Shown here one piece after another: positions 3,791 to 30,666 of a DNA stretch of 64,000 nucleotides. The notes under the pieces were generated by a model. The model ran no database searches, had not been told where the DNA came from, and worked only from the letters and a program-made list of their open reading frames with translations. Every line of letters begins with the position of its first letter. The first letter of the stretch is position 1. Position numbers and translations under genes: made by a program. The DNA is from Escherichia coli (GTDB lineage: Bacteria > Pseudomonadota > Gammaproteobacteria > Enterobacterales > Enterobacteriaceae), in the NCBI RefSeq assembly GCF_016026235.1, contig NZ_CP065613.1; one strand, written 5' to 3'.

Positions 3791-6519
3791 AAAACCATTT
3801 CATCCTCTGTGACGGACTCGTCGTCCTGAGCATCTTCCACGTCTGCCGTGAATGCACCGTCTGCCGCCGACAGGCGGATGCGGGCAATCGCCGTGTTAGC
3901 CGCCATTTTCTGCAACAGCAGCAGCGAGAGCGGCGGCAGCATGTCGCCGTCGATGACCGATTCGAGCATCCTCGCGCCGTTTTCCGCGCGGGTGACGCGG
4001 CTCATGATTTCGTCCGTCACTTCCGGCTCAATAACCACCTCCGCGCCAAAGCGGCTGCGCAGCACGTTATCCAGGCGGGCCAGTTTCCCGGCGATGATGG
4101 TGGCGAGCGTCTCTTTCGACAGCGGCAGGTAAGGCACCACCTCCATTCGCGCAAGCAGGGCAGGTTTAAAGAAGTCAGCCAGCACCGGATAGAGGGCTTC
4201 CTGCATGGTCTCCGGGTCATCCGCGTGTTCGACAATCATCTGGTAACCGAGGTTGGAGGTGAGGAAGAAGACGATATTCTTACAGTCAATCAGGCGGCCT
4301 TCGCCGTCTGCCATCTCGCCCTTGTCGAACGCCTGGTAGAACAGGTTGAGCACATCCGGGTGCGCTTTTTCCACTTCATCGAGCAGTACCACCGAGTAGG
4401 GTTTCTGGCGGATGGCTTCAGTCAGTACGCCGCCTTCGCCATAGCCGACATAGCCCGGAGGGGAGCCAATCAGCCGCGAGACGGTGTGCTTCTCCTGGAA
4501 CTCGGACATATTGATGGTGGTGAGGTACTGGCGACCGCCGTAGAGCAGCTCTGCCAGTTGCAGGACGGTTTCGGTTTTACCCACGCCGCTGGGGCCAGCC
4601 AGCAGGAACGCGCCGAGCGGGCGTCCCGGACGGCGCAGGTCGGCGCGTGCGGTCAGCAGGTGTTTATGCAGGCTGGCAATTGCCAGGTCCTGGCCTTTGA
4701 TGGTGTCACCAAGCCACTTCGGCAGGTCGGTGATGACCGACATTTCATTCTGCGACAGGCGGTTAAGCGGTACGCCGGTCCATTCGGCAATCACCGCCGC
4801 AATCTGTTTTTTATCGACGTGCGGGGAAACCAGCAACCGGTCGTTATGCAGGGCGTCCAGTTCGGCAGTGAGTTGTACTAGCTGCTGCACCGGGGAAACT
4901 GTTTCAGCGGTCTCTTCCGGCTGTGTACTGCCCGCATCATCAGCCGGTGCGGTACCGGTATTATCCTGTTCTGACTCTGGCGGCGTATCCACTACGGCAT
5001 CTGTGTCCTCTGTCACACCCAGCAATAGCTGGCGCAGCGCGATAATTTCCCGTACCAGCGTCTGCTGCTGGTGCCAGGCCGCTTCCAGTTCATCCAGCGC
5101 CGTCAGCGTTTCATCGTACTGCACCAGCACCTCAGTCATCCGTGAAGTGTCGGTACGCAGCCCGATGCGAAGCTCGCGCTCAAGCTGGCGAATTTCCGCC
5201 TCCTGCTGGTGGCTCAGGGTGGTCAGCGCCGAGATTTGCTTCGGTGGCGATGACAGGTTGATTGCCACACGTGCGCAGGCCGTATCCAGCACATCAATGG
5301 CTTTGTCTGGCAACTGACGCCCGGAGAGATAACGCTCACTTAATGTCGCAGCGGCCTGCAAGGCGTCATCATCAATCAGCACACCGTGAGACTGTTCATA
5401 GACCGAAGAGAGGCCGCGCAGAATAATGGTGGCTTCGGCAGCACTGGGTTCACTGACCTTCACCAACTGGAAGCGACGCGACAGGGCGGCGTCTTTCTCG
5501 AAGTATTTTTTGTACTCGCTCCAGGTGGTGGCGGCGATGGTTTTCAGCTCGCCACGCGCCAGTGCCGGTTTGAGCAGGTTGGAGATATCCAGCCCGCCCT
5601 GCTGGTTGCCCGCGCCAATCAGGGTATGCGCTTCGTCGATAAACAGAATGACCGGCACCGGAGAGGAAATGACCTCCGCCATCAGCCCCTTGAAACGTTT
5701 TTCAAACTCACCTTTCACCGATGCTCCGGCCTGCAATGCGCCCAGGTCAAGAGTCATGATATCGGTGTTTTTCAGCTTATCCGGCACCTGCCCTGCCACG
5801 ATGCGCAGCGCCAGCCCTTCAATCAGCGCGCTTTTGCCCACGCCGGCTTCGCCCACCACCACCGGATTGTTTTTACGGCGGCGGCAGAGAATGTCGATCA
5901 TCAGGTCGATTTCGTGGTCGCGGCACAGTACCGGGTCAAGTTTTCCGTTACGGGCGTCTGCGGTCATGTTTTTGGCGTAGCGGGCCAGCAGGGTGTCGCT
6001 GGTTTCCGTTGCGCGGGGCGTTTGCCCGCCAGCCAGATCCACGGATTCGGCGGATTCTTTTGTCCATGCGGCGAAATCCTGCTGTAACTGGTCGCGGTTT
6101 ATGGCCGTCAGCAGACGGGCAGCAGCGGGTGGAATATAGCGCAGCGGTGAATGCAACAGAGTAAGCAGCAGGACGCCGCTGCGCAGTTCGCTGTGCTGCA
6201 TCTGGGCCGAGGCCAGCAGCCATGACTCCTTGAGCCATTCGACCAGCATCGGGGAGAAGCTGGGATAGCCATCGGCGGAACGTCCGCCGGGATAACTCTC
6301 CACGGTCAGCGCCTGGCGTAAATCCTCCGCACTGATGCCTGTGCGTTCGGCAATCACCCTTACGTCGTTGCGCGGGATTGCCAGCATCTGTAACAGCACA
6401 TGGGCAACGGTGATCTCACTGGCCTGCTGGCTCATACACTCCGAGGCAGCCATTTCCAGCGCCTGTTTTGCAAAGGGGTTAAGCCGCTTTACCAGCGTGG
6501 CTAAATCAATCTGGATCAT
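3787..6519 (-). CDS. clpV: ClpV (TssH) AAA+ ATPase
   Basis: 910 aa; two AAA+ modules with Walker A GEAGVGKS and GPSGVGKT; Clp N-domain-like start. Confidence 0.9.
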   Translation of the reverse strand: MIQIDLATLVKRLNPFAKQALEMAASECMSQQASEITVAHVLLQMLAIPRNDVRVIAERTGISAEDLRQALTVESYPGGRSADGYPSFSPMLVEWLKESWLLASAQMQHSELRSGVLLLTLLHSPLRYIPPAAARLLTAINRDQLQQDFAAWTKESAESVDLAGGQTPRATETSDTLLARYAKNMTADARNGKLDPVLCRDHEIDLMIDILCRRRKNNPVVVGEAGVGKSALIEGLALRIVAGQVPDKLKNTDIMTLDLGALQAGASVKGEFEKRFKGLMAEVISSPVPVILFIDEAHTLIGAGNQQGGLDISNLLKPALARGELKTIAATTWSEYKKYFEKDAALSRRFQLVKVSEPSAAEATIILRGLSSVYEQSHGVLIDDDALQAAATLSERYLSGRQLPDKAIDVLDTACARVAINLSSPPKQISALTTLSHQQEAEIRQLERELRIGLRTDTSRMTEVLVQYDETLTALDELEAAWHQQQTLVREIIALRQLLLGVTEDTDAVVDTPPESEQDNTGTAPADDAGSTQPEETAETVSPVQQLVQLTAELDALHNDRLLVSPHVDKKQIAAVIAEWTGVPLNRLSQNEMSVITDLPKWLGDTIKGQDLAIASLHKHLLTARADLRRPGRPLGAFLLAGPSGVGKTETVLQLAELLYGGRQYLTTINMSEFQEKHTVSRLIGSPPGYVGYGEGGVLTEAIRQKPYSVVLLDEVEKAHPDVLNLFYQAFDKGEMADGEGRLIDCKNIVFFLTSNLGYQMIVEHADDPETMQEALYPVLADFFKPALLARMEVVPYLPLSKETLATIIAGKLARLDNVLRSRFGAEVVIEPEVTDEIMSRVTRAENGARMLESVIDGDMLPPLSLLLLQKMAANTAIARIRLSAADGAFTADVEDAQDDESVTEDEMVL

Positions 6520-6528
6520 AAGATGTCC

Positions 6529-7302
6529 TTATCGGAGTAATTTATTGAGCTGATGCAGAATATCCTGTGTCTGGCTGTCCAGACGCAGCAGATAAAACAG
6601 ATAAAATACGGCCAGCACAACAAGACCTCCGCACATTACATGCCTGATGGTCAGCCGCCGGATTAACTGATAACGCCCACCCTGTATGTTGTTCTTCTGG
6701 TGAAGCAGCGGAAATGGCGCATCGCCGCGCAGTTTGTGCAGGGCATGGTGCAGGCGCTGGTAGATCCGCTCAAATTCATCCTGTTGCTGAATGGCAACCT
6801 TGTAGCGCCCGCGAAAGCCGAGCGAAAAACAAAGGTATAAAAATTCCAGCAGATCCTGGTAACGTATCGGCTCCCGGATAAGGCGTTCGAGCAGGATAAA
6901 CACTTTCTCGCCGCCCCAGGCTTCGTTATGAAAATGAACCAGCAGCGACTGTTTGATCCATTCGTTTTTGTTGGACCAGCCGTTGCCCAGCGCCGCTTCG
7001 TCAATAAACGTGCAGAGAATGTAGCGGAACGAAACAATGACGCCCGGTTCGTATCCCTGTTCCTGGAGTAGTTGTTCTACGGCCTGGACATCGGTTACCA
7101 CCTGGGCAAACAGATGTTCTGGCATGGCCTGGCTGTTCATGGTGGACAGACGCATCACCATGCCGAGCAACGGCGTGGCGGCGTCAATCATTGGGTTCAG
7201 GCTGTTGCCGCGAAGGGCGAGACGGTACTGACGTCCTGATGTTCCGCTCTCCGGCTCCATGGGAAAAACCGACGGTTCACCCATATCGCTGATATCGCTC
7301 AT
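6529..7302 (-). CDS. tssL: TssL (DotU-like) T6SS membrane protein
   Basis: 257 aa with C-terminal TM helix (GGLVVLAVFYLFYLL); position between tssK and clpV. Confidence 0.7.
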   Translation of the reverse strand: MSDISDMGEPSVFPMEPESGTSGRQYRLALRGNSLNPMIDAATPLLGMVMRLSTMNSQAMPEHLFAQVVTDVQAVEQLLQEQGYEPGVIVSFRYILCTFIDEAALGNGWSNKNEWIKQSLLVHFHNEAWGGEKVFILLERLIREPIRYQDLLEFLYLCFSLGFRGRYKVAIQQQDEFERIYQRLHHALHKLRGDAPFPLLHQKNNIQGGRYQLIRRLTIRHVMCGGLVVLAVFYLFYLLRLDSQTQDILHQLNKLLR

Positions 7303-7306
7303 TCAC

Positions 7307-8653
7307 TTATCCCCTTATCGCCCAGAGCTGAAGGTTCAGATCGGGGAAGGTGCCGGAGATATGCAGCGCCAGCGCGCCCGCTTTTATCACGTCCTGCCAG
7401 GCTGGGGTGCCTTTTTCCAGTTCGAAGTAAACATAACCTTCATGCCAGGGCAACTGACGCGGCGCAGCGGTAAGCGTGTGCAGCGGAATACCCGGCACCT
7501 GCACGCTGACCACGCTGCGGATTTTGTCGGTAGCGGCCACTTTCGACTGCTGGATGAACTGGCGTTGTACCTGGTCGTAGGGCATCCTGGCGCGCACTGC
7601 CAGTACCAGCTTGCAGGACTGCAACAGTGTGGGATCGTTGATGGTGGCGATCCAGGTCCCCTCTGAAAAGAACAGCGGCAGATTCTGCGCACGCGGCACC
7701 AGTACGGTATTGAGCGCGCGCCGCAGTTCCGGGATCACGGTTCTGGTGAAGGTCGCGGTAAGATCCCTGTGATTATATGGCTCCACGGTGCAGGGCAGGC
7801 GATTACCTTCGGTAAAGGTCATCAGTTCTCCCAGCAGCCCCACCAGATTCCGGTAGAAGGCTTCCGGATGCAGCGTGTGCAGTTGGGAACGATGCGTGAA
7901 CTGCATTTGATGGCGGTTAAGCATCTGCAACATCATAAATTCGGCTACATCGGCGATCCCGCTCTGTTCAGGCGAACCAATGCGCCCGGCCAGGTCAGCG
8001 GCGCGGGTGGCAAGTAGTCCCTGCACCTCGCCGGAGAATGCCCCGAGCAACCCGCTGACACGGACGGCCTGAATGGTGGGAATAAAGGTGTTGTCCAGCA
8101 CCAGCGCGCCGGTGGCATTTTTATTGAGGATACGGCACAGGGGGAGAGTCACCATCGCGCTGAGATCATCTGCGCCGCTGACTATCCTGGGGATCAACTG
8201 TCCCAGACCGACTGGCTGTTCGTCGCCTTCGTCAGTGTGAAAATCACGGACGCGGGTATGGGTGAGGCGGTAACGCTCCGTACCCTGACCGGCGCTGTGC
8301 AACCCCTGGATTTCATTGATCACGTCGCTTATCACCGGCAGCGCCAGATAAATACTGTGGCTCTCTTTCGATGAAAGGGTTCCCGGCTGGAAAGGTTCCG
8401 GCAGCAGATCCTGGTCGGGAATACTGAATACGGTGCCGTCAGGCATGCAGCCCGCCGCACGGTCAATCATAATTTTGCCCTGAGCAAGCAGTTCGGTATT
8501 GATGGAGAGTTCCGTAAAGCCCCAGAAAAAATCACCCAGTGCATCCAGACGACGGGTCAGCAGGTACTCGCAGTGACGCTGCTGTTGCTGAAAATGCTGC
8601 GGCAGGGCAAACAGCCCTTCCTGCCAGATCACCTTGTTTTTCATTGTTGCCAT
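7307..8653 (-). CDS. tssK: TssK baseplate protein
   Basis: 448 aa; N-terminus MATMKNKVIWQEGLFALPQHFQQ typical of TssK; gene order. Confidence 0.8.
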   Translation of the reverse strand: MATMKNKVIWQEGLFALPQHFQQQQRHCEYLLTRRLDALGDFFWGFTELSINTELLAQGKIMIDRAAGCMPDGTVFSIPDQDLLPEPFQPGTLSSKESHSIYLALPVISDVINEIQGLHSAGQGTERYRLTHTRVRDFHTDEGDEQPVGLGQLIPRIVSGADDLSAMVTLPLCRILNKNATGALVLDNTFIPTIQAVRVSGLLGAFSGEVQGLLATRAADLAGRIGSPEQSGIADVAEFMMLQMLNRHQMQFTHRSQLHTLHPEAFYRNLVGLLGELMTFTEGNRLPCTVEPYNHRDLTATFTRTVIPELRRALNTVLVPRAQNLPLFFSEGTWIATINDPTLLQSCKLVLAVRARMPYDQVQRQFIQQSKVAATDKIRSVVSVQVPGIPLHTLTAAPRQLPWHEGYVYFELEKGTPAWQDVIKAGALALHISGTFPDLNLQLWAIRG

Positions 8654-17215: not shown

Positions 17216-19615
17216 ATGTCCTTAAAAGGTCTGCGCTTTACGCTGGAGGCTGACGGCCAGGAGCCGGACACCTTTGCAGTGGTGAATTTCAGGTTAATCC
17301 AGAACCAGTCTTATCCGTTTGTGATGAGTGTGGATGTTGCCAGCGACTCTTTTATGCAGACGGCGGAGATGCTGCTGGAGAAGAAGGCGACGCTGACCAT
17401 CTGGCAGGGCGTCATCCCGCTGCGTTATGTTACCGGCGTGGTGGCGGGCTTTGGCATGCAGGAGAACAATGGCTGGCAGATGCGTTACCACCTGCGTATT
17501 GAGCCGCCGTTATGGCGGTGCGGGCTGCGGCAGAATTTCCGTATCTTCCAGCAGCAGGATATCCGGACGATATCGGCCACGTTACTGAACGAGAACGGCG
17601 TCACGGAGTGGACGCCGCTGTTTTATGAGGACCATCCGGCGCGGGAGTTCTGTGTGCAGTACGGGGAGTCGGACCTGGCGTTTCTGTCCCGGCTGTGGGC
17701 GGAGGAGGGAATTTTCTTCTTTGAGCGGTTTGCGGCGGACAGTCCGGAGCAGAAGCTGACGCTGTGCGACGATGTGGCGGGGCTGTCACAGGCGGGAGAG
17801 CTTCCGTTTAACCCGGACACATCGGCAGGAGCGGAGACAGAGTGTGTCAGTATGTTCCGTTATGAGGCGTATGTCCGCCCGTCGTCGGTGCAGAGCCAGG
17901 ATTACACGTTTAAGGTGCCGGACTGGCCGGGGATGTATGAGCAGCAGGGTGAGAACCTGAACGGACAGCTGGCGCAGTACGAGATATTTGATTATCCGGG
18001 AAGGTTCAAGGATGAGCAGCACGGCAAGGATTTCACGCTGTACCAGATGGAGAGCCTGCGCAGTGATGCGGAAAAGGCCACAGGGCAGAGTAATTCGCCG
18101 AGGCTGTGGCCGGGAACGCGGTTTACGCTGACGGGGCATCCGCAGAAGATGCTGAACCGTGAATGGCAGGTGGTACAGAGCATTCTGTCAGGAAACCAGC
18201 CGCAGGCGCTGCACGGCAGCCAGGGAAAGGGAACCACACTGGGAAATCAGTTAGAGGTGATACCGGCGGACCGGACGTGGCGTCCACGGCTGCAAAGCAA
18301 ACCGAAGGTGGACGGGCCACAGAGCGCCATTGTCACCGGGCCTGCGGGAGAGGAAATCTTCTGCGATGAACATGGCCGGGTACGGGTGAAGTTCCACTGG
18401 GACCGTTATCACGGGATGACGGAGGCGAGTTCATGCTGGGTGCGGGTATCGCAGGCGTGGGCGGGGCCGGGGTTTGGTAACCTGGCGATACCGCGGGTGG
18501 GCCAGGAGGTGATTGTTGATTTTCTGAACGGAGACCCGGACCAGCCGCTGGTCATGGGCCGGACGCACCATGAGGACAACCGTTCGCCGGGCGACCTGCC
18601 GGGAACGAAGACGCAGATGACCATCCGGTCGAAGACCTATAAAGGAAGCGGATTTAACGAACTGCGCTTCGAGGACGCCACCAGTAATGAGCAGGTGTAT
18701 ATCCATGCGCAGAAGAACATGGATACGGAGGTGCTCAACGACCGGACAACGGATGTGAAACATGACCATACGGAAACCATCGGTAACGACCAGAAGATAA
18801 CGGTGGTGAAGGGTCAGACGGTTCAGGTCGGTACAAAAAAAGAGGGGGGCCACGACCAGAGTATCACGGTGGCGAACGACCGGCGTATCACGGTACGTAA
18901 TGACCAGACTCTGAAGGTGACGAATGACCGGACGGTGAGCGTGAGTCACGATGACGGTCTGTACGTCAGAAACGACCGTAAAGTGACGGTGGAAGGGAAG
19001 CAGGAGCATAAGACGACGGGGAACCATATCAGTCTGGTGGAGGGGAAACACAGCCTGGTGGTGAAGGGGGACCTGGCGGAGAAGGTGAGTGGCGCGCTGG
19101 GGATAAAAGTGGACGGGGATATCGTGCTGGAGAGCAGCAGCCGGATAAGCCTGAAGGTGGGTGGCTCGTTTATCGTCATTCAGCCGGGCGGAGTGGATAT
19201 TGCCGGGCCGAAGATAAACCTGAACGGTGGGGGCAGTGCGGGGACACCGGTGGGGACGATGCAGCCGGCGGTGCTGGAGGCTCCGGAGGATGAGAGCAGT
19301 GATGATGGCAGTGATGACTCCGGAGAGGATAGTGGCAATCCCGCAGGGAGTGACGGAGGAGGTGATGGCGGTGACGATGAAGATGATCCTGAAAAATATA
19401 CCCTCCAGTTCCATTTTACGGACGATGACGGGATACCGTATTCAGAGACGCAGTATATTGCCTTTTTTGAGGATGGCACACAGACGCGTGGTGAAACAGA
19501 CAGAGAGGGATATACAGAAATATTTTATACAGATACAGCACAGGAAATTAAAGTCCAATTGTTATTTTCGGATGCTTTTTATATTGAGCCGGAGGGGCAT
19601 TATGGCAGGGAATAA
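17216..19615 (+). CDS. vgrG: VgrG (TssI) spike protein with acidic C-terminal extension
   Basis: 799 aa; gp27/gp5-like body, repeated RNDxT/V-type beta-helix motifs, C-terminal acidic linker (DDGSDDSGED...GGDDEDD) plus about 70 aa tail. Confidence 0.9.
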   Translation: MSLKGLRFTLEADGQEPDTFAVVNFRLIQNQSYPFVMSVDVASDSFMQTAEMLLEKKATLTIWQGVIPLRYVTGVVAGFGMQENNGWQMRYHLRIEPPLWRCGLRQNFRIFQQQDIRTISATLLNENGVTEWTPLFYEDHPAREFCVQYGESDLAFLSRLWAEEGIFFFERFAADSPEQKLTLCDDVAGLSQAGELPFNPDTSAGAETECVSMFRYEAYVRPSSVQSQDYTFKVPDWPGMYEQQGENLNGQLAQYEIFDYPGRFKDEQHGKDFTLYQMESLRSDAEKATGQSNSPRLWPGTRFTLTGHPQKMLNREWQVVQSILSGNQPQALHGSQGKGTTLGNQLEVIPADRTWRPRLQSKPKVDGPQSAIVTGPAGEEIFCDEHGRVRVKFHWDRYHGMTEASSCWVRVSQAWAGPGFGNLAIPRVGQEVIVDFLNGDPDQPLVMGRTHHEDNRSPGDLPGTKTQMTIRSKTYKGSGFNELRFEDATSNEQVYIHAQKNMDTEVLNDRTTDVKHDHTETIGNDQKITVVKGQTVQVGTKKEGGHDQSITVANDRRITVRNDQTLKVTNDRTVSVSHDDGLYVRNDRKVTVEGKQEHKTTGNHISLVEGKHSLVVKGDLAEKVSGALGIKVDGDIVLESSSRISLKVGGSFIVIQPGGVDIAGPKINLNGGGSAGTPVGTMQPAVLEAPEDESSDDGSDDSGEDSGNPAGSDGGGDGGDDEDDPEKYTLQFHFTDDDGIPYSETQYIAFFEDGTQTRGETDREGYTEIFYTDTAQEIKVQLLFSDAFYIEPEGHYGRE

Positions 19616-20405
19616 TAATACTAGTGGGACTTCACAACCCGAGTCGCAAGTATGTGTAGTACCGCAAAAAATTACAAATAAATTTAAAATAATGATGAGT
19701 AAGGCTTGTAAAGCACAGAAAATGGTTTTATTGAAAAGAGCAGATGATATTATGTCATGGGAGGGGGAACAACAACGAGATTTTATTAAAGTTTTTGGCC
19801 TTAAAGGCGAGGACATTATAAAAATCAGAAAGGTTGGGGAAGATACTGGGAAACGAATGCAAGCGAGACTATTCATAATGGATGGCATCAGACGAATAAT
19901 GACGATTGCAAATGGTTTGACGATCGAAAGCTATAAAGATTATACGAACTGCAATGAATTTGCTGCTTTTATTAGTCCACATCTTGATCCTCCTTACATT
20001 GTAAATATCGGAGCGCATTTTGAATACAGACATGGTATAAAACAGTCGGTTACAGGTAGAGACTCTCATGTAAGTACACTTTGCCATGAAATGTCCCATA
20101 TATTTTGGTATTGGGGTGACAATCAAAAAGGTGGTATGTGGACTCAGGATTATACGGGTATTAATAAGTTCGCAACAAGTAATAAGGATGAAGTTAGCTA
20201 TGAGAAACATGTTTCAGTGGCTAATGATCTGGTTACATTGCGTAAAGATCAGTTATTTGAGAATGCATATAATGTTGAAAGATATTTTTATATAAAATTA
20301 AATGATGAAGATATTGAAGCTCAAGATGAGAATATGTTAGCAAAAAAAGTAGAGGATAAAATAAAAGAGATAGAAAAATGTTTTGATGAGTTGATGGGGA
20401 AATAA
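19602..20405 (+). CDS. Putative VgrG-associated effector, zincin-like metallopeptidase candidate (HExxH)
   Basis: ATG at 19602 overlaps vgrG stop by 14 nt (track ORF 19227..20405 begins inside vgrG). AT-rich; motif STLCHEMSHIFWYWGD...WTQDYTG (HExxH plus a downstream Asp). Confidence 0.45.
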   Translation: MAGNNNTSGTSQPESQVCVVPQKITNKFKIMMSKACKAQKMVLLKRADDIMSWEGEQQRDFIKVFGLKGEDIIKIRKVGEDTGKRMQARLFIMDGIRRIMTIANGLTIESYKDYTNCNEFAAFISPHLDPPYIVNIGAHFEYRHGIKQSVTGRDSHVSTLCHEMSHIFWYWGDNQKGGMWTQDYTGINKFATSNKDEVSYEKHVSVANDLVTLRKDQLFENAYNVERYFYIKLNDEDIEAQDENMLAKKVEDKIKEIEKCFDELMGK

Positions 20406-20468
20406 GATGAAGAGGTTGGCTTTCTATAATCTAAATTATGTTGTACTGATGGTTTTTTTCTTTGTTTT

Positions 20469-21155
20469 TTGCCATTATCTATTGCAATTGCAATAGATAA
20501 TGAGAATCTTTTTGTAAAAAAATACAGATTCGGTTTTGAACGAAGAAGTGACAATGGGAAACCAATTATTTATCTTAGCCATAATTTAGCGCCAGAGGAA
20601 AATATAAGTAATGAATTAACAAATGATGTTGTTGTTAAATTGGTGGTTAAGCCACATGCTGAAAATATTTTAGCTACTATAACTTTTTATAACAGTAGTA
20701 CTAAATCGTATTTTCTCCCCAGAATATATTATCCAAAGAACTTCCAAAAAGGAAATGGAGATGTATTTGATGCTTTGTGTGATGACGAATTCTTGATTAC
20801 ATCAGGAAATATTAGCTTAGACTATCTAGGAGGCTTTTGTCCCTTTGAGCTTGATTTGAATTTGAGCCGATGGGTGGAAATTACGGCAGGTAAAAAAATA
20901 TCTTTTGATGTAAAATTGAATGATATGCATTCATTTCTCCCCAGTTTAAATAATTATCATATAAAAACATTAAACTACAAACTTGTTAGGAGAAAATGGT
21001 TTGTATTAAAATCAATTAATGAAACATTCCTCTCTATTTTGATGAAAAGATACTCATGTAATGAATATGATTTTAGAGCTATATCATTTAGTGGAGAGGG
21101 ATGTGATAATTATGAATTTGATAAAAATACGTTTTTTTTGTTAATCAAATATTAG
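20469..21155 (+). CDS. Hypothetical protein, immunity candidate for the upstream effector
   Basis: AT-rich 228 aa ORF directly downstream; begins with TTG in the track; a 29-codon ATG-initiated hydrophobic peptide (20407..20496) lies in another frame just upstream across a T-run. Confidence 0.3.
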   Translation: MPLSIAIAIDNENLFVKKYRFGFERRSDNGKPIIYLSHNLAPEENISNELTNDVVVKLVVKPHAENILATITFYNSSTKSYFLPRIYYPKNFQKGNGDVFDALCDDEFLITSGNISLDYLGGFCPFELDLNLSRWVEITAGKKISFDVKLNDMHSFLPSLNNYHIKTLNYKLVRRKWFVLKSINETFLSILMKRYSCNEYDFRAISFSGEGCDNYEFDKNTFFLLIKY

Positions 21156-21394
21156 ATAAAGATGATGAGCAACATTCTGTTCATATTAGGTCTAATGAAT
21201 TTTCCATCAATATCGATGGAAGCTTGGTAAAGCAACCTTATTGATTAAAATGTATCGCAGGTTTTATTTTCTGTAATGCTGGTGCATGTGCGTAAATATT
21301 TCTTAAGAGCCGGAAACACCTCTTCCGCCTTTATCGACGATAAACCTACCGCCAGAACCGGTGATGCCATTGACTGCGGTGGCGTGGTTAAAGG

Positions 21395-21732
21395 TGGCGG
21401 GCGATGTGGTGCTGGAGAGCAGCAGCCGGATAAGCCTGAAGGTGGGCGGTTCGTTTGTGGTCATCCATTCAGGGGGCGTGGACATCGTCGGGCCGAAAAT
21501 CAATCTCAATAGCGGCGGTAGTCCGGGAACGCCGGTGCCGACGCTGCAACCGGCGGTTCTGAAAGCGCTGGCAGATGATAAAAGTTTAGCGGCTGAGCAA
21601 AATGATAGTAATGCATCGTCCGATCAGAATGATAACAACGATGAGGGTGAGGAAGCGCCAGAAAAATCGGTGTGTAAGGAGTGCCTGAAAAGGGCGCAAG
21701 AAGCCGCCGCCGTTTTTGCGCCTCGTGGATAA
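21395..21732 (+). pseudogene. vgrG 3-prime fragment (orphan VgrG C-terminal region)
   Basis: 21395-21560 is near-identical at DNA and protein level to vgrG 19103-19270 (GDVVLESSSRISLKVGGSFVVI...GPKINLN); upstream sequence is unrelated to vgrG; distinct C-terminal tail. Confidence 0.7.
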
Positions 21733-21738
21733 GGGAGA

Positions 21739-22509
21739 ATGACAATGATAACAGTATCGCCACACGCTACCGATCAAGACAAATATATTATCTGGCTGAA
21801 GCAAGCTGAATCATTCTGTTCTGCCGCTGGTTTGGATTACATAGATGTGCTTGTTGACCAGGCTGGAACCGACCAACCTTTGCAAAATGATATGCTTCAT
21901 CTGTGGCCAGCCATTCACTGGTATGCCCTGTTTGAAGGAACGCCTGAAGCTGAGACGATGGAGTATTCCCCTGTAGTGTTACGCCTGTACTTTGCGCTCA
22001 GTAGCCATCGCAAATTTCTGGCACAACTGATGGCGTCATTTGCTGATACGCCGCGTCTTACTTTGTTGATATCCCCTCTTACATTCGACCTGCTGGGGCG
22101 GCATCTTCAGGTATTGTCACAGGTTCAGTGGGAAGAACAGACCGGATTGCTGCGTTACTATGATAATCGGGTGTTCCCTTTACTGTTCACACATGTTTTG
22201 ACTAACGAGCAGCAGGCGACATTTACTGATATTGCGTTGTTCTGGAGCTGGTTAGACCGTGATGGTGAGATTAACTGGAAATCAGGAAGTTTTTCACCAG
22301 AACGCAGGCTTACTGACAACCCGGAGATGAATCGGGTGGATGATGTACAGGTGGGATTGATGGGCTGTATCTGCGACGCTGAAGTCCTGATGAAGGAGAA
22401 AGCAGTCAGTGAACTCAGTCAGGAAAGCTATTTTGCCCACTGTCTTGATATTGCTTTCAGAGCCAATGACGCGAAATATTTCGGAGCTTTGCGGGACTTC
22501 GAAGGATAA
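21739..22509 (+). CDS. DUF4123-like T6SS effector adaptor (Tap/Tec-type)
   Basis: 256 aa immediately after the vgrG fragment (RBS AAGGGAG); size and position typical of DUF4123 adaptors. Confidence 0.6.
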   Translation: MTMITVSPHATDQDKYIIWLKQAESFCSAAGLDYIDVLVDQAGTDQPLQNDMLHLWPAIHWYALFEGTPEAETMEYSPVVLRLYFALSSHRKFLAQLMASFADTPRLTLLISPLTFDLLGRHLQVLSQVQWEEQTGLLRYYDNRVFPLLFTHVLTNEQQATFTDIALFWSWLDRDGEINWKSGSFSPERRLTDNPEMNRVDDVQVGLMGCICDAEVLMKEKAVSELSQESYFAHCLDIAFRANDAKYFGALRDFEG

Positions 22510-22822
22510 TATTGTGGTGATGTACGGGGAGATTTATCTGTTTAAAAGTCCGTAGCTGTTAATATCAAGAGATAATCGTGAAATAAACGGAAAATCAAGC
22601 TCGACATGTAATGGTAGTATCCATCATGTTGCATTTGTGTTCGATCGTAATGTCAGTTCACTTGGCTGCAATATATTTTGCGTAATATCATCAATGCTCT
22701 GTCGATATTCCAATGTGTGACAATCGAAAGATATGCATTTTATTTGCTTCTTTGTCAAAACTTTATTGTCGTAGAAACAATACCCATCAATTAAAATCTC
22801 TCAAAGTAAAAGAACCAGCAAC

Positions 22823-23377
22823 ATGTCCAGCAAAATAAGGAAAAGTATCAGTATGAGAGCGATTTTCAAATGTTATTCTCTAATGATTTTATTTGCAGTA
22901 TCAGGCTGTTCAATGGCAAAAAATAGCGGTGATTACACTGCTGTGGATATTAATGGGATAAATCATACGGATAAGGATATAAATTATATACACATCAATG
23001 GTTACGGCGGACCAAATATTGGCCCATTCGGAGACGGTGGAAGATATTGTTGCGTTATGCTGCCAGATAAGTGGCATTCTGGATTAAAAGCCCGAGTTGA
23101 GTGGGAGGTTGATCCAAATACAGCTCCTCTGCCTCCAGGCTATAAGGACAGGGAGAAATTTGAAGCATGGAAGAAAGTTGCGCTAAACAGTTTTAGAAAA
23201 TATTCAACAATTGTTGATATCCCGGAATATGATGCTGAGCTTTGTGGCCTGACCGTTCATTTTCTAACGTGTAATCAGATAAAAGTGACAACCGTCTGCC
23301 AGAAATATGGTACACCAAATTATCCTATCAAAGAACCCCGCGAGATGAAGGAACCAGCAACATGTCCAGCAAAATAA
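22823..23377 (+). CDS. DUF3304-like lipoprotein, Tli1-type immunity candidate (copy a)
   Basis: 184 aa, signal peptide with lipobox VSGC; paralogous to the next gene; Cys-rich (RYCCVMLPDKWHSGLKARVEWEVDPN). Confidence 0.5.
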   Translation: MSSKIRKSISMRAIFKCYSLMILFAVSGCSMAKNSGDYTAVDINGINHTDKDINYIHINGYGGPNIGPFGDGGRYCCVMLPDKWHSGLKARVEWEVDPNTAPLPPGYKDREKFEAWKKVALNSFRKYSTIVDIPEYDAELCGLTVHFLTCNQIKVTTVCQKYGTPNYPIKEPREMKEPATCPAK

Positions 23378-23904
23378 GAAATGGAATGAATATAACAAAA
23401 GTAGTTAAAGGCTGTCTGGTATTAATTTTGATGGTGATTTCGGGTTGCTCAGCAGCTAATTACGACGATTATACTGCAGGTGATCTCCGGGCAATAAATC
23501 ATATTAAAGGTATCAGTATTAATTGGTTCACCGTAAATGGTTATCGGGTCCATGGTTTGGGCGGTGGATATTGCTGCATAATGTTACCAGAGAAGTGGCA
23601 TTCTGGATTAAAAGCCCGGATCGAGTGGGAAGTAGACCCGAACCCCCTTGAACCTATTGCAATGAAAAAAGAAGGTTTTGGCTATGAAGAAGATGCTTAT
23701 GCTAAACATGCTGCAAATTATCAAAAATATAAAGTAATTGTTGATATCCCGGAATACGGCGCTGAACGTTGTGGCCTGACCGTTCATTTTCTGCCGTGTA
23801 ATCAGATTAAAGTGACAACCGTCTGCGAGGGCTATGGCACACCGAATTATCCTATCAAAGAACCCCGCGAGATGAAGGAACCTGCAACATGTCCAGCAAA
23901 ATAA
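23362..23904 (+). CDS. DUF3304-like lipoprotein, Tli1-type immunity candidate (copy b)
   Basis: 180 aa paralog of 22823..23377; the 3-prime approx 130 bp are about 90 percent identical between the copies. Confidence 0.5.
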   Translation: MSSKIRNGMNITKVVKGCLVLILMVISGCSAANYDDYTAGDLRAINHIKGISINWFTVNGYRVHGLGGGYCCIMLPEKWHSGLKARIEWEVDPNPLEPIAMKKEGFGYEEDAYAKHAANYQKYKVIVDIPEYGAERCGLTVHFLPCNQIKVTTVCEGYGTPNYPIKEPREMKEPATCPAK

Positions 23905-25982
23905 GTGGTCTGGCTTTTCCGTGTTATGCCCCCCCGGTGTTCCCTGAAGATGGGCGATTAATATTATCTGAAGTGCAGGTAAACGCGAACTACCTAAAAC
24001 AAATCAATAAAACAGAGGAGCACAAAACCAACTGTAGTAAACAGGCTGGATTTAGAATTGGCTTTACGTGTAATCAAAGTCTGCATATTAGTCTGTTTTT
24101 TGATGGTACAAATAATAATGAATATAATGACACAAAAGTCTCTCATCCAACCAATATTGCGAAATTATTCCACACAAGTATCGAAGACCGTAATGCTGGG
24201 TATTTTTCCTATTACATACCTGGTGTAGGCACACCATTTCCCAAGATAGGTGAAATGGATTACAGCAACAGCGGACTGGAATTTGCCACCGGTGGTGAAG
24301 ACAGGATTAATTGGGCATTATTACGCCTCGTGGATGCTCTTAGCTATGCTATTGACCCTACCCAAAATGGGCTGAATGAGAAGGTGGCAAAAGAGCACAT
24401 TCCTGTCATGCGAGCTCACTGGCCGATGACTGGTGAAGTGAATCGTCGCAATGTGATTAACCCCTACCTGGAAAAATTACAGGGGCAGTTAGAACAAGCC
24501 AGTCCGCGCCTGCTAAACGTAAAGCTATTTATCTACGGATTTTCCCGTGGCGCAGCGGAAGCGCGAACCTTTGTTAACTGGTTGACTCAGTTAGCTTGCC
24601 CGCAGAGGCAACAGGTGATGCTGGCCGGTTTAGCTGTCAGTATTGAGTTTTTGGGGCTGCTGGATACCGTAGCTTCTGTGGGGGCGGCGCATGTTTTGCC
24701 GGGCGCTGCCGGTCATATGGGATGGGCCGATAGTACTCAGCAACTCCCTGATGAGCGGCACTTTCCCGGCCTGATTAAATGCTGTCGTCACTTCGTTGCC
24801 GCGCATGAGCAGCGGCTGTGCTTCCCGCTGGATTCAATCCGTCGTCCTGAAGGCAATTATCCTTTATATGCAGAGGAAGTGATCTATCCGGGGATGCACT
24901 CTGATGTCGGTGGTGGCTATCCCGTTTGCGATCAGGGGAAGTCCTGTGGAGGTCCAGATGAAATTCTCTCTCAAATTGCTCTGCATGATATGTATCTTGC
25001 GGCGTTTGATGAGGGCTCTCCATTATCAGTGCATCCTTTATTCATAACCAAAATGATAAAAGATATTTCACCATCAAGAGCTATGTCTGATTCATCAATT
25101 GCTGAATTTGTCATCGCTCCAATGTTGATTAAACGCTTCAACATCTGGCGTCAAGCGCTGCTGAACACCACCTTGCAGGGTACAGAAGAAATGATTGATA
25201 CGAGGGAAGGTTATCACTCCTATCAACTTGCCCAGGTTCTTGAAAGCGCAATTAGCGATCAGATCGGCTGGATCACCGCCTGGCGTATCGGTCGCTATGC
25301 GAATAACAGCCTTCTTGTGCAACCTTTTTATATTAAGGCGCCACAGCTGGATAAAGATGGACTTGATAAAGAGGCTAAAGCGCGTAAAGAACAAATGGAA
25401 AATATTGAAAAAGAACAGGCGAACAAGCAGAAAGGGAATGGCACACTTGATGAAAGTAATCAGGGCATTCCTATCCTTGACCCAACCAATGCTCAGTATC
25501 AGTTGCGAGAGGCAGCCCGAGAATTTCAGAGCGATTATAAAGGATGGACGCGCGATATTAACGGCAGCGTCATGGAGAAAGCCATTCAGATTCTTGTGGA
25601 TGTCATTCCTAAATATCCGGTGTATCTGATTAATGGCGATGATGAAGCAAAAGAATATCAGCAAATTAAGGCTATGGGAGACGGACTCTATCCACAATTT
25701 TTTATTGATTCACTGGGAACGGGAACGCGTACTCAGCCATGCGCTGAATTACTGGCTCTCTATGATGACCAGGTTCACGACTCCCGCGCCTGGTTTATGC
25801 AAAGTTCGCTGGGTGGACGCGAACCCTGGGGCGGTTATTTTCGCTACCGCATGATTTACTTCGGTGATGAGGCTAATAAAGAGCTGAAGCTAATCTCTGC
25901 AGATGGCAAAGTTGTTGGCGATCAGCCCACATCCAACCGGGTCATTTATTGGATGGAATCGAAAACGGTGAGCCGAGGTTAA
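23889..25982 (+). CDS. Tle1-like phospholipase effector (DUF2235 alpha/beta hydrolase)
   Basis: 697 aa; DUF2235 hallmark HISLFFDGTNNN and nucleophile elbow GFSRG; follows adaptor and lipoprotein genes. Confidence 0.7.
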   Translation: MSSKISGLAFPCYAPPVFPEDGRLILSEVQVNANYLKQINKTEEHKTNCSKQAGFRIGFTCNQSLHISLFFDGTNNNEYNDTKVSHPTNIAKLFHTSIEDRNAGYFSYYIPGVGTPFPKIGEMDYSNSGLEFATGGEDRINWALLRLVDALSYAIDPTQNGLNEKVAKEHIPVMRAHWPMTGEVNRRNVINPYLEKLQGQLEQASPRLLNVKLFIYGFSRGAAEARTFVNWLTQLACPQRQQVMLAGLAVSIEFLGLLDTVASVGAAHVLPGAAGHMGWADSTQQLPDERHFPGLIKCCRHFVAAHEQRLCFPLDSIRRPEGNYPLYAEEVIYPGMHSDVGGGYPVCDQGKSCGGPDEILSQIALHDMYLAAFDEGSPLSVHPLFITKMIKDISPSRAMSDSSIAEFVIAPMLIKRFNIWRQALLNTTLQGTEEMIDTREGYHSYQLAQVLESAISDQIGWITAWRIGRYANNSLLVQPFYIKAPQLDKDGLDKEAKARKEQMENIEKEQANKQKGNGTLDESNQGIPILDPTNAQYQLREAAREFQSDYKGWTRDINGSVMEKAIQILVDVIPKYPVYLINGDDEAKEYQQIKAMGDGLYPQFFIDSLGTGTRTQPCAELLALYDDQVHDSRAWFMQSSLGGREPWGGYFRYRMIYFGDEANKELKLISADGKVVGDQPTSNRVIYWMESKTVSRG

Positions 25983-26039
25983 GTTCATAAGATTGAGGGG
26001 TTGGTGACCGGGAAAATGTAGACATGTAGTGCCTAATCA

Positions 26040-26100
26040 CCCCAGTTCAAACCCATCCGCATCCCGCCATGCCGGAAACTTCACACTGTACTCCCAGGGA
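26040..26100 (-). pseudogene. Diverged duplicate of the yafV 3-prime end
   Basis: 26053-26092 matches 29895-29928 (catccgcatccYgccatgccggaaactt); reverse translation reads ...KFPAWRDADGFELG*, like the yafV C-terminus ...[14 protein letters not shown]. Confidence 0.45.
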
Positions 26101-26238
26101 AAAATCACGTAATGCTGCTTTTTTTGTACTAAATAATTCGCATTTTATGTTCAATAATTGAGGTGTTCCTTATTACCTAAAGCTGTTTTTCATTGCTTAT
26201 ACATGATCAAATACTCATTGCATAATTAAGGGGGCAAA

Positions 26239-27055
26239 ATGGAACTTAAAAAATTGATGGAACATATTTCTATTATCCCCGATTACAGGCAAGCCTGGAA
26301 AGTGGAACATAAATTGCAGATATTCTATCTGTTAACTATTTGCGCCGTTATTTCTGGTGCATAATGCTGGGAAGATATAGAGGATTTGGGGAAACACAAC
26401 CCGATTTTTTGAAGTGATATGGTGATTTTGAAAATGGTATTCCTGTTCACGATATCATTGCCAGAGTTGTATCCTGTATCAGTCCTGAAAAATTTCATGA
26501 GTGCTTTATTAACTGGATGCGTGACTGTCATTCTTCAGATGATAAAGACGTCATTACAATTGATGGAAAAACGCTCCGGCACTCTTATGATAAAAGTCGT
26601 CACAAGGGAGCAATTTATGTCATTAAAATCCGTCTTCATATTGTTTGCATGTCTCTGATGAATTTATTGATTTTACGTTTGAATGGAAAGGGCTGAAGAA
26701 ATTATGCATGGCAGTCTCATTTCGCTCAATAATAGCAGAACAAAAGAAAAATCCCGAAATGACGGTCAGATATTATAGCATTTCTGCTGATTTAACCGCA
26801 GAGAAGTTCGCCACAGCGAACCGAAATCACTGGCAAGTGGAGAATAAATTGCACTGGCATCTGGACGTGGTAATGAATAAAGACGACTTTATAATAAGAA
26901 GATGAAATGCAACAGAATTATTTTCAGGGATACGGAACATCGCTATTAATATTTCAAAGAAAGATAAGATACTCAAGGCCGGGGCAAGATGTAAGATGTG
27001 AAAGCAGCTGCGGACAGAGACTACCTCGCGTCAGTCCTTTCGGGGGCGGGCTTTC
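26239..27055 (+). pseudogene. H-repeat associated protein (ISAs1-family transposase) pseudogene with internal deletion and frameshifts
   Basis: Starts [26 protein letters not shown]..., then stop/frame changes; contains [28 protein letters not shown] and C-terminal [23 protein letters not shown]...[20 protein letters not shown]; about 320 bp of the middle are missing relative to the full-length family. Confidence 0.7.
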
Positions 27056-27228
27056 GTAATCTTGCTCTGCAAGGGATGATAAAAAGTGCAACTTTATTCC
27101 ACGCAGCTATTTAGACAGCGTACAGTAAACAAACGAAAGTTGTTATTTCAATGGTCAGGGCAAGAGCATGAAGTGTTTACTACACACTATGCTCTTGTAC
27201 TGGAGTCAGGTCTTGTTTGGAGGGATAA

Positions 27229-28005: not shown

Positions 28006-29297
28006 TGAGGGATCCCCAGAAAATTTAGTAAACCATTATCATATTGGTATACCGTTGCTGTAGAACTTTCAGCCCTGCGTCAAGTGACAGTGTGTTTAGT
28101 ATGAGTGGAGAATGTCGAATCACATTCTCCGCCAGTTTTAATAACGAGATGACTCGCCTGTGCTTCACTGTATTTGCCTGATATTTATGATGTATCCCTT
28201 TGTTTTCCAGGCTGAAACCGCTTAACCACATAATGATACTGGCTAATGTTGCGATCAGACTCAATACCGTGACCCGCCCGGATGAATGACTGGCACCAAA
28301 CCGTAGTCCAAATCCCCAGCGAGGATTTTTTTCATCCCTGAAATTTTGCTCAATTTGCATTCTACGGCTGTATAATTTCATTACCTGTTTTGGCGAGAAC
28401 TCAGTACTGTTTGTGAAAATAAACCATGGTGATTTCCCGGCAGTACGAGCTTTAGCCGTCACCGATGGTCTGGTTGCTCTTTCCTTCGAGCGTTTAAATC
28501 TACGACCTTTAGGCTTACTTTTATAAAGATAAAAATGCCCTTCATGTTGTGCATTTTTATCTCGACCCAGCAGGCCTTCACCTAAATAAATTGCTGTCGT
28601 TGATGCTTTTGTGCCTGAGTCCGACACCTTTTCCCAGCCATTACCAACATTGTAATAATGATTGCCCAGTACCCGGCAAATATAGGTCCAGCCACGGGAG
28701 CGGAGCTGTTGGAACCATCGCCCCTGAAAACCGGCATCTGTAATAACAATGACATCAGTCCCGGGGGAAAAGCACTCAGCAAGCGATTCCAGAAAACGCT
28801 CATGTACATCTGCATTCGCTGTCTGTGATGATGGAACGACACAACTCATCAACGGTAAAGAACGCCCGTCACATGCCAGGCTTGCCCGCAAAAGCTGAAA
28901 ACGAGAGGCATGATAAGCACTCCAGTCAATGAGTATCACAACACGAGACATTCCCCGCGTAATCTTTTGGGTAATTCGCTGAAAAATGGTGGAAACCTCA
29001 TTTTGCAAATGTCGATTCCCCAACAGTCGATCCACCCGCTTTATTTTGTTTTTAACTGATGCCGTACCGGTTAAATGACGCCCGATACTGGTAAGTGTGA
29101 GGGAAGCGCCATTTATTACAGCATTAGTTGCGTCAATCAGTGATTTTTGACGGTAAAGATGCAAAGGGGCCAGTATATTGTTAAGGAAATTTTGGCATAA
29201 TGAACGTGCAGGCATAGTGGTGATCTCCTTGAAATTGTTAGCACAATCAATTAGATCACATCTCACTATGCCTGTCTTGTTTTCTGGGGATTCCTCA
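28006..29297 (-). mobile_element. IS4-family-like insertion sequence, copy 1 (intact), approx 1292 bp
   Basis: Terminal inverted repeats TGAGGGATCCCCAGAAAA / TGAGGAATCCCCAGAAAA; 11-bp direct repeat GGGGTATTTCC at 27994-28004 and 29298-29308; single transposase ORF. Confidence 0.8.
28025..29215 (-). CDS. IS transposase (intact)
   Basis: Track ORF 28025..29266; start placed at ATG 29215 (MPARSLCQNFLNN...) with RBS AAGGAG, matching the start in copy 2. Confidence 0.8.
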   Translation of the reverse strand: MPARSLCQNFLNNILAPLHLYRQKSLIDATNAVINGASLTLTSIGRHLTGTASVKNKIKRVDRLLGNRHLQNEVSTIFQRITQKITRGMSRVVILIDWSAYHASRFQLLRASLACDGRSLPLMSCVVPSSQTANADVHERFLESLAECFSPGTDVIVITDAGFQGRWFQQLRSRGWTYICRVLGNHYYNVGNGWEKVSDSGTKASTTAIYLGEGLLGRDKNAQHEGHFYLYKSKPKGRRFKRSKERATRPSVTAKARTAGKSPWFIFTNSTEFSPKQVMKLYSRRMQIEQNFRDEKNPRWGFGLRFGASHSSGRVTVLSLIATLASIIMWLSGFSLENKGIHHKYQANTVKHRRVISLLKLAENVIRHSPLILNTLSLDAGLKVLQQRYTNMIMVY

Positions 29298-29635: not shown

Positions 29636-29835
29636 AATAATATCGTAATTTTGAAAATGGTAATCCTGTTCACGACACCATAATTAGAGTTATGTCTTGT
29701 ATCCGTTCAGTATAATTTCACGAATGCTTTATTAACTGGATGCGTGACTGCCATTCATCAAATGATAAAGACGTCATCGCAATTGATGGAAAAGCGCTTC
29801 CACACTCCTATGATAAAAGTGGTCGCAGGAGAGCG
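29636..29835 (+). pseudogene. H-repeat associated protein fragment (second, diverged copy of the 5-prime region)
   Basis: Encodes ...[35 protein letters not shown]...; about 85 percent DNA identity to 26420-26590, same orientation. Confidence 0.55.
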
Positions 29836-29886
29836 GGCTTTCGTAGTAATACCCCGACTCTCCCCGTCCTTAAACACAACCCCCAC

Positions 29887-30666
29887 TCACCACAACCTAA
29901 ACTCATCCGCATCCTGCCATGCCGGAAACTTTTCTCTATATTCCCGCAATGCCATCATCGACAGCTCCGCATCAATGCGCGTTGCCTGATGCGCGTCGGC
30001 AGTAGCGATAATCTCGCCTTGTGGATTAATCACCCGGCTGTCACCGCGATAATGGCAGCCGTTGCCATCGCTGCCGACGCGATTGCATCCCGCCACATAC
30101 GCCTGATTCTCAATCGCGCGGGCCGTCAGCAATGCCTGCCAGTGCAGAGAGCGCGGAGCAGGCCAGTTGGCAACGTAGATGGCGAGGTCATAATCGTTGA
30201 GATTGCGCGACCACACCGGAAAACGTAAGTCGTAGCACACCAACGGCAAAATACGCCAGCCGCGCCATTCCACAATCACTCGCGCATTGCCCGCTTTATA
30301 ATGTAGATGCTCATCTGCCATGCGGAACAGATGACGCTTATCATAAAAATGTACCGTGCCGCCCGGCTCAACCAGCAAAAAGCGGTTAACCGAACCAGAC
30401 TCCGTTTGTAATGCAACACTGCCTGCAATCAGCGCATTGCACTGCTGCGCCTTAGCTGTCATCCAGTTCACTACGTCATCTTGTGCTAGCGACGAAGCTG
30501 CCGCTTCCATGGCAAAGCCGCTGGTAAACATCTCCGGTAGAACGATCACATCGCGCCCGGTAATACCTTCCAGTTGACGATCAAAATGACGCAGGTTGGC
30601 AGGGCCATCCATCCACACCAGTGGTTGCTGCAAAAGCGTAATCTTCAAACCAGGCACGGTGTACAA
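29887..30666 (-). CDS. yafV: YafV-like carbon-nitrogen hydrolase (omega-amidase)
   Basis: 259 aa nitrilase-superfamily protein; true start may be a GTG three codons downstream ([11 protein letters not shown]...). Confidence 0.85.

Follow-up and report, generated by a model that had tools for sequence, protein, structure and literature searches.

A short repeated junction between tandem Tli1a-family immunity genes and the start of tle1 in an Escherichia coli type VI secretion effector module

The window examined here, a 64,000-nucleotide (nt) stretch of Escherichia coli DNA on contig NZ_CP065613.1 (assembly GCF_016026235.1), holds between positions 22,510 and 25,982 a tandem array of two lipoprotein genes, tliA and tliB, followed by the phospholipase gene tle1. 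Judged by its sequence, the region is a type VI secretion system (T6SS) Tle1 effector module that comprises a VgrG remnant, Tla1, two Tli1a-family immunity lipoprotein paralogs and Tle1. The array is punctuated by three copies of a short junction. We consider it likely that the module has this identity and, jointly, that the junction is the overlap between a tli stop and the tle1 start, stands in front of tli genes as a vestige of duplication, and takes part in the recombination that reshapes the array. Tandem arrays of DUF3304 immunity genes in front of tle1 have been published and annotated before, and the arrangement as such is ordinary; the junction as a vestigial tle1 start and crossover site would add details that are new but incremental.

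A preliminary description of this DNA had reported a GAACC(A/T) repeat at three sites. The 28-mer GAACCWGCAACATGTCCAGCAAAATAAG occurs exactly three times, always on the + strand (22812-22839, 23351-23378 and 23878-23905), with A at its variable position in copies 1 and 2 and T in copy 3, and it appeared in none of the 100 dinucleotide-preserving shuffles that define its chance level. The repeat can be extended to 31 nt, starting at 22809, 23348 and 23875. The longest open reading frames (ORFs), 22823-23377, 23362-23904 and 23889-25982, all start with MSSKI, and the first two close with EPATCPAK-stop inside junctions 2 and 3; as originally proposed, the junction codes in one frame for the C-terminal end of one product and in another for the ATG of the next gene. 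No ORF lies upstream of junction copy 1. The features of the region, in which SD denotes a Shine-Dalgarno sequence, are as follows.

21361..21732, + strand: C-terminal fragment of VgrG (pseudogene), apparent remnant of the VgrG that first headed the Tle1 module
21739..22509, + strand: tla1, DUF4123 adaptor/chaperone for Tle1 (PF13503, E=1.5e-14; NF053803, 218 bits)
22510..22808, + strand: AT-rich leader from tla1 to the array, without detectable tli homology
22809..22839, + strand: junction J1, the 'orphan' at the head of the array, with AAAGAA at the SD position
22823..23377, + strand: tliA, Tli1a-family DUF3304 lipoprotein, longest ORF 184 amino acids (PF11745, 1.3e-28; NF053804, 208 bits)
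23197..23378, + strand: homogenised 3' block of tliA, with its partner at 23724-23905 in tliB (182 nt, 90% identity)
23348..23378, + strand: junction J2, tliA KEPATCPAK-stop with overlapping SD AAGGAA and ATG
23362..23904, + strand: tliB, second Tli1a-family DUF3304 lipoprotein, 180 amino acids (PF11745, 1.6e-24; NF053804, 202 bits)
23875..23905, + strand: junction J3, where the tliB stop overlaps the tle1 SD/start by 16 nt
23889..25982, + strand: tle1, T6SS phospholipase effector of the P. aeruginosa/Klebsiella type, 697 amino acids (PF09994 and PF22137)
23929..23935, + strand: C7 tract at tle1 codons 14-16; C7 places the junction ATG in frame, C6 out of frame

Matches to Pfam, NCBIfam and the PDB agree with the initial recognition of lipoprotein paralogs upstream of a Tle1-like phospholipase. 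Tle1 matches P. aeruginosa Tle1 (PDB 4O5P, E=1.9e-116) over query residues 11 to 677, and its GxSxG nucleophile motif, YGFSRGA, aligns with the same motif in 4O5P. The NCBIfam assignments are made at cutoffs of 200 bits for NF053803 and 110 bits for NF053804. Read from the translations, the lipobox of tliA is VSGC (…LFAVSGC, with the Cys at codon 29 of the longest ORF) and that of tliB is ISGC (…LMVISGC); both proteins have Ser at +2, consistent with outer-membrane sorting as reported for Tli1a (PMC13133936). The gene order tla1-tli-tle1 is common to the eight genera whose boundaries were compared, namely Escherichia, Kluyvera, Enterobacter, Yersinia, Gibbsiella, Salmonella, P. syringae and Xenorhabdus. 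RefSeq annotates the locus in ~70 of 5,426 complete E. coli genomes, and newer records name tla1 and tli1a. A sequence search of the PDB with the Tli protein gave no match, and an Rfam search of 20000-27000, leader included, gave nothing at E<=1. Promoter-like sites in the array region were not above chance, and no terminator was found between tla1 and tle1.

The tli-tle1 boundary has the same stop/start overlap design in all eight genera. Tli proteins share a conserved C-terminus, KEPAxC(P/S)(x)K-stop; an A directly before its Cys codon makes the tle1 ATG within an overlap of 13-16 nt, and AAGGA(A/G), from the Lys-Glu codons of tli, occupies the SD position for tle1; in the E. coli junction, the codons for …KEPATCPAK hold both the SD AAGGAA and the ATG (from ACA TGT). 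Among homologs the Tli C-termini (KEPAxCP(x)K) and the Tle1 N-termini (MSxx…) are both conserved. Tle1 homologs start MS(E/K/S)… 11-16 residues, mostly 12-14, ahead of PPxFP, and window Tle1 has MSSKI and nine further residues before the PPxFP core of its APPxFP motif. This conservation, together with the 14-residue spacing in the window, argues that MSSKI is the genuine ancestral N-terminus of Tle1. The junction ATG at 23889 has an SD at 8-nt spacing with an anti-SD duplex energy of -5.7 kcal/mol, which, with the homolog N-termini, supports the earlier proposal that the junction supplies the Tle1 start codon. Immunity and toxin would probably be translationally coupled through the junction, as its geometry suggests.

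By analogy with the homologs of K. pneumoniae and P. aeruginosa, TliA and TliB are predicted to be Tle1-binding, protective immunity proteins. In K. pneumoniae HS11286, tle1 is preceded by four tandem tli1 genes, and complementation with tli1 gives protection from Tle1 (PMC5649205). P. aeruginosa Tli1a, a DUF3304 protein, is an outer-membrane lipoprotein that binds Tle1 (PMC13133936). Two points weigh against the reading favoured here: in a heterologous assay in E. coli, periplasmic Tle1 was not neutralised by Tli1a of P. aeruginosa (PMC13133936), and the junction SD energies (-5.7 kcal/mol) are no lower than those that random 22-mers reach (5th percentile -7.0).

The frame of the tle1 start varies among strains with the length of the poly-C tract. 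The loci compared for this tract are L001-L009, where L004 is FDAARGOS_943 and L008 is PSUO2. The window, L003, L004 and L007-L009 carry C7, which sets the junction ATG in frame with tle1; L001, L002, L005 and L006 carry C6, and the Prokaryotic Genome Annotation Pipeline (PGAP) either begins tle1 at a GTG further downstream in these or marks the gene as frameshifted. The original proposal for the Tle1 start needs this qualification. The C6 alleles are otherwise intact ORFs, three of which have a ratio of nonsynonymous to synonymous substitution rates (dN/dS) of 0.24-0.32 against the window allele. They may reflect a recent frameshift, the use of another start (the downstream GTG), phase variation or a homopolymer sequencing error. 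A homolog search with the Tle1 N-terminus returned mostly fragments, unusable for comparing the frequencies of MSSKI and GTG starts.

The tle1 start also recurs inside the arrays. In P. syringae (L014) and Xenorhabdus (L017), each tli is followed by a junction and then by a Tle1 N-terminal-like ORF of 46-76 codons; the fragment ORF MSEVKNNSKDKAWGPPVF… plainly matches the Tle1 N-terminus MSEMNNNSKGKAWGPPVF…. Because a Tle1-like ORF follows every tli, the repeating unit in both includes the start of tle1. These duplicated N-terminal fragments, their starts intact, lie at 3726-3920 and 4504-4710 of L014 and at 3774-4004 and 4501-4641 of L017. The vestige in E. coli, Kluyvera and Gibbsiella is an ATG plus four codons (MSSKI in E. 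coli) that runs in frame into the tli signal peptide. In the Enterobacter locus that was fetched, the five tli that follow another tli, as well as tle1, all begin MSG, and the vestigial ATG is the first codon of a signal peptide of normal length. We propose that arrays grew by tandem duplication of units that carried the tle1 start, and that each unit retains a vestigial tle1 start, cut down in E. coli to the ATG and four codons. The vestige stands in front of the tli signal peptide and, given the lipobox, signal peptidase II would remove it anyway.

The start codons of the two tli genes bear on how this vestige is read. In the case of tliB, the SD described for tle1 also precedes the junction ATG at 23362 (AAGGAA, -5.7 kcal/mol, 8-nt spacing), the internal ATG at 23386 (M9) is without an SD, and PGAP calls the junction ATG in each fetched locus with an intact type-B copy (L003, L004, L005, L007, L008 and L009). 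For tliA, the leader junction reads AAAGAA instead of AAGGAA (-0.9 kcal/mol), the internal ATG at 22853 (M11) is preceded by TAAGGAAAAG, which includes the SD AAGGA (-6.2 kcal/mol), and where tliA leads the array (L001 and L006), PGAP begins it at the internal ATG. An internal Met is kept ~18-22 residues before the lipobox Cys in all extended Tli homologs examined. The N-termini of 33 Tli homologs were read; 20 are without an MSSKI-type extension and have 17-24 residues to the Cys. For several of these (Yersinia, P. syringae, Xenorhabdus and Salmonella) a tli start separate from the junction is confirmed in the DNA; the other called starts depend on decisions made by the gene caller. The Salmonella tli-tli junction reads ACT TGC, so that the ATG is gone, and the ATG is kept at the tli-tle1 junction. 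The SD energies compared here, that of M11 included, are weak evidence, as random 22-mers span the same values. On the evidence taken together, the most likely start of tliA is 22853, and MSSKI is plausible as the start of tliB, unlikely as that of tliA and genuine as that of Tle1. The mature lipoprotein would be identical from either start, given lipobox cleavage.

It could instead be argued that the junction ATG is the working start of all three genes and that the orphan junction records the recent loss of an upstream tli in this strain. The MSSKI shared by all three longest ORFs speaks for this, as do the SD in J2, the junction start that PGAP uses for tliB, and Enterobacter, where the junction ATG directly starts five tli and tle1 (the first tli is called 45 nt further upstream). 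Three-copy relatives, moreover, carry an additional upstream tli, frameshifted, that the window is without. The preliminary description had indeed stated that all three genes begin MSSKI, which is correct for the longest ORFs; for the start of tliA it conflicts with the leader junction, which is without an SD, and with the SD in front of M11. The internal Met retained in extended homologs, the many N-termini without an extension and the ATG missing from the Salmonella tli-tli junction argue in the same direction. As for recent loss, no E. coli locus examined is without the orphan junction at the array head, three-copy loci included, where it is diverged (ATGCCCGTCGAAATAA), and it occupies the same position in Enterobacter and in Gibbsiella, where it forms an in-frame extension of the tla1 end (…GDLMTEPATCPVK-stop). 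The head junction thus appears to be an old feature, not the mark of a recent loss, and we regard this alternative as unlikely.

The head junction nevertheless bears a trace of tli: its 5' half encodes Tli C-terminal residues, and it would therefore derive from a tli 3' end, of which just the stretch from SD to stop can still be recognised. The earlier statement that the orphan implies a lost tli copy survives in this respect, but its age across all E. coli loci, Enterobacter and Gibbsiella contradicts a recent loss. A degraded tli in the leader was considered and rejected: no tli remains were found there beyond the 31-nt junction, local alignment scores lying within the shuffle null and ungapped identity being 37%. 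The persistence of the head junction would fit selection that maintains a site of translation initiation, or ongoing gene conversion from the junctions inside the array; recombination between junctions cannot remove the last junction, and tle1 needs that junction. Two side observations concern the same stretch. In Gibbsiella (L016, 2950-2974), tla1 ends in the head junction, which gives Tla1 a C-terminus resembling that of Tli (…TEPATCPVK) and creates a 16-nt overlap between tla1 and the first tli. L003 and L009 have, directly after the tla1 stop, a leader insertion of ~125 nt with …GAATCCCCAGGAGCGTGCATAAGTACGTGACTGGGGTGAGTGAACGCAG… (alignment A2, columns 37-160), which we take to resemble an enterobacterial repetitive intergenic consensus/intergenic repeat unit (ERIC/IRU) element.

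Recombination within the array is indicated by how the two tli genes differ along their length. Pairwise alignment of the two, which the preliminary description had proposed, returns a conserved 3' block and diverged 5' parts. The contrast that it had drawn between a conserved 3' 130 bp and a diverged 5' portion is therefore correct in kind, but the block is longer (182 nt at 90% identity). There is also a mid-gene block of 83 nt at 81% identity; outside the shared blocks, tliA and tliB are about 46-61% identical, with ~61% across the first 130 codons. By the Nei-Gojobori method, dS is 0.25 and dN 0.08 over the last 59 codons, whereas dS is saturated over the first 130 codons. It is saturated as well in the block YCCxMLPxKWHSGLKAR, which is conserved in protein sequence (dN=0.05). 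Since low dS is confined to the 3' part and a conserved block is still saturated, the 3' similarity reflects recent homogenisation and not just protein constraint. Mosaic genes are found in other strains: L006_u3 combines a B-type middle with A-type 5' and 3' parts, L006_u2 is A/A/B, and L001_u1 has a third kind of middle segment. A and B paralogs occur together on single contigs in Kluyvera and Salmonella, and the duplication is therefore old; the two paralogs probably guard against different Tle1 variants.

Copy number varies by the same units. In the ~70 E. coli genomes, tallied from RefSeq feature lists, there are mostly three DUF3304 coding sequences, the first often frameshifted; about ten genomes have one and a single genome has none. 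One Enterobacter locus has six tli. The natural E. coli variants fit junction-by-junction deletions that leave two, one or zero copies: what comes after the leader and junction is tliA in the window, L001, L004 and L006, tliB in L005, and tle1 itself in L002. The array head shares only the 31-nt junction with the downstream units, yet L005 and L002 are joined there, which places the crossover within the junction. We propose that unequal crossing-over or slippage, as well as gene conversion, act on the identical junctions and the ~180-nt 3' block, that gene conversion keeps the 3' block similar between paralogs, and that mosaic immunity genes and arrays of differing copy number (from 0 to 3 in E. 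coli, with 6 in one Enterobacter) would be the outcome. The changes in copy number could represent loss or gain. Recombination-driven turnover of immunity genes, as first suggested for this locus, is well in keeping with the low dS found only at the 3' end, the mosaics and the 0-3 copy variants with breakpoints at junctions, and the variation among related strains that had been anticipated is present as 0 to 3 tli copies.

Several other accounts of the repeat were weighed against these data. That the copies are an assembly artefact of duplicated or collapsed reads is virtually impossible and was rejected. The two units are too unlike each other, at ~61% identity over the first 130 codons, and the same genes and junctions recur in complete genomes assembled independently: the stretch that begins in the middle of tliA and includes tle1 has 100% identity between FDAARGOS_943 and the window, and a three-copy array is present in the majority of the ~70 E. 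coli genomes that carry the locus. More substantial is the idea that the junction is kept only as a dual-coding initiation region for tle1, copy changes proceeding through the 3' block or by unrelated deletions. Yersinia arrays lend this some weight, as their tli-tle1 overlap is conserved though the tli are otherwise separated by spacers, and 182 nt is a better recombination substrate than 31 nt. The head of the array speaks against it, because only the 31-nt junction is shared there and L005 and L002 nonetheless join the leader precisely at that point; we consider this account improbable. A shade more improbable still is a scheme in which the junction is a selected cassette boundary for frequent gain, loss and shuffling of immunity genes, yielding an immunity repertoire built by recombination, and the C6/C7 tract a slipped-strand on/off switch for the full-length toxin with immunity still expressed. 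The junction as tli-tle1 overlap, duplication vestige and crossover site remains the reading that we prefer.

The module can be compared with three described systems. In K. pneumoniae HS11286, as in the window, an array of the DUF3304 type lies directly upstream of the DUF2235/Tle1 gene in a T6SS locus; its copies are 94% identical, whereas those of the window are old paralogs, ~61% identical in their 5' part and homogenised only at the 3' end. In the text read, PMC5649205 describes neither the junction structure nor the start-codon vestige for that array. P. aeruginosa PAO1 vgrG4a-tla1-tli1b-tli1a-tle1 (PMC13133936) has the same order and families, with Tla1 as a DUF4123 protein and the Tli as DUF3304 outer-membrane lipoproteins. 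In PAO1, one of the two immunity genes is a proposed pseudogene, whereas in the window both tli ORFs are intact and the cognate VgrG is reduced to a fragment. The Sci-1 Tle1/Tli1 pair of enteroaggregative E. coli (EAEC; 6SJL/6SKI) likewise consists of a phospholipase effector of an E. coli T6SS and an immunity lipoprotein, but it belongs to a different subfamily. EAEC Tle1 matches window Tle1 at only E=4e-7 over ~135 residues, and EAEC Tli1 belongs to DUF2931 (bioRxiv 10.1101/2024.03.05.583533) as opposed to DUF3304. Membership of the EAEC Sci-1 type was rejected on these two grounds, the DUF3304 immunity proteins and the E=4e-7 match to 6SJL. Downstream of vgrG in Klebsiella, no domain is more frequent than DUF3304 (PMC12469244).

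The surroundings of the module suggest a history of displacement. The VgrG fragment is 90% identical over 115 amino acids to residues 630-744 of the intact VgrG of L008 (PSUO2), which heads a tla1-tli-tle1 module, and 80% identical over 60 amino acids to the window VgrG (17216-19615); RefSeq relatives annotate the fragment as an incomplete VgrG. The window VgrG (799 amino acids) is followed by gene 19602-20405, then by a hypothetical gene at 20469-21155. The putative counterpart of 19602-20405 in RefSeq relatives is named M35 metallopeptidase, and the window gene is without a Pfam or NCBIfam match. The Tle1 module looks displaced behind a newer, putative VgrG-M35 module: a newer effector module may have recombined at the vgrG 3' end and pushed the Tle1 module downstream. 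Relatives show signs of decay. FDAARGOS_943 (L004), the relative closest to the window, has IS1A inside tliA (6638-7335) and IS600 upstream of tla1, after the VgrG fragment (4105-5261), neither of which is in the window; tli copies have been lost in some other strains, and tle1 is frameshifted in one. Displaced 'orphan' toxin-immunity modules lie downstream of rhs and cdiA genes, and orphan immunity arrays are found at V. cholerae T6SS loci. The window resembles the rhs/cdiA orphan modules in that the newer module would have entered at a conserved part of the carrier, the vgrG 3' end, leaving the old fragment downstream. In contrast to those modules, VgrG serves as the carrier here, and a cargo effector with its own adaptor takes the place of a fused toxin domain. 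Since the cognate VgrG of the window is only a fragment, delivery of Tle1 by the T6SS is uncertain.

Further observations concern neighbouring genes and more distant loci. On the 3' side of tle1 lie DDE transposase fragments at 26325-27059, annotated in relatives as ISAs1 family and frameshifted, followed by an intact 413-amino-acid DDE transposase ORF at 28025-29266 on the - strand and by a carbon-nitrogen hydrolase gene (29740-30666) at the island edge. In Salmonella enterica (L015, 1476-2476), a protein of 236 amino acids joins a Tle1-like N-terminus, MPSEISGLALPCFAPPEFP…, to a Col-Pyo DNase domain. The fusion gene is located downstream of two DUF3304 genes and is followed by a colicin/pyocin-type immunity gene; it looks as though one toxin domain had been exchanged for another behind the N-terminal region of Tle1. 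Pseudomonas mohnii (L012, 5001-8875) has three DUF3304 genes ~1.7 kb apart with near-identical upstream regions, and no tle1 was called within the 10.5 kb fetched.

For the biology of these modules, the MSSKI in front of tli would be a duplication vestige only, a point that helps to fix inconsistent RefSeq start calls. Lacking an intact cognate VgrG, the module of the window may act chiefly as a reservoir of immunity. The junction would account for the growth, shrinkage and mosaics of the Tle1 immunity array, and in this way it bears on which strains resist which Tle1.

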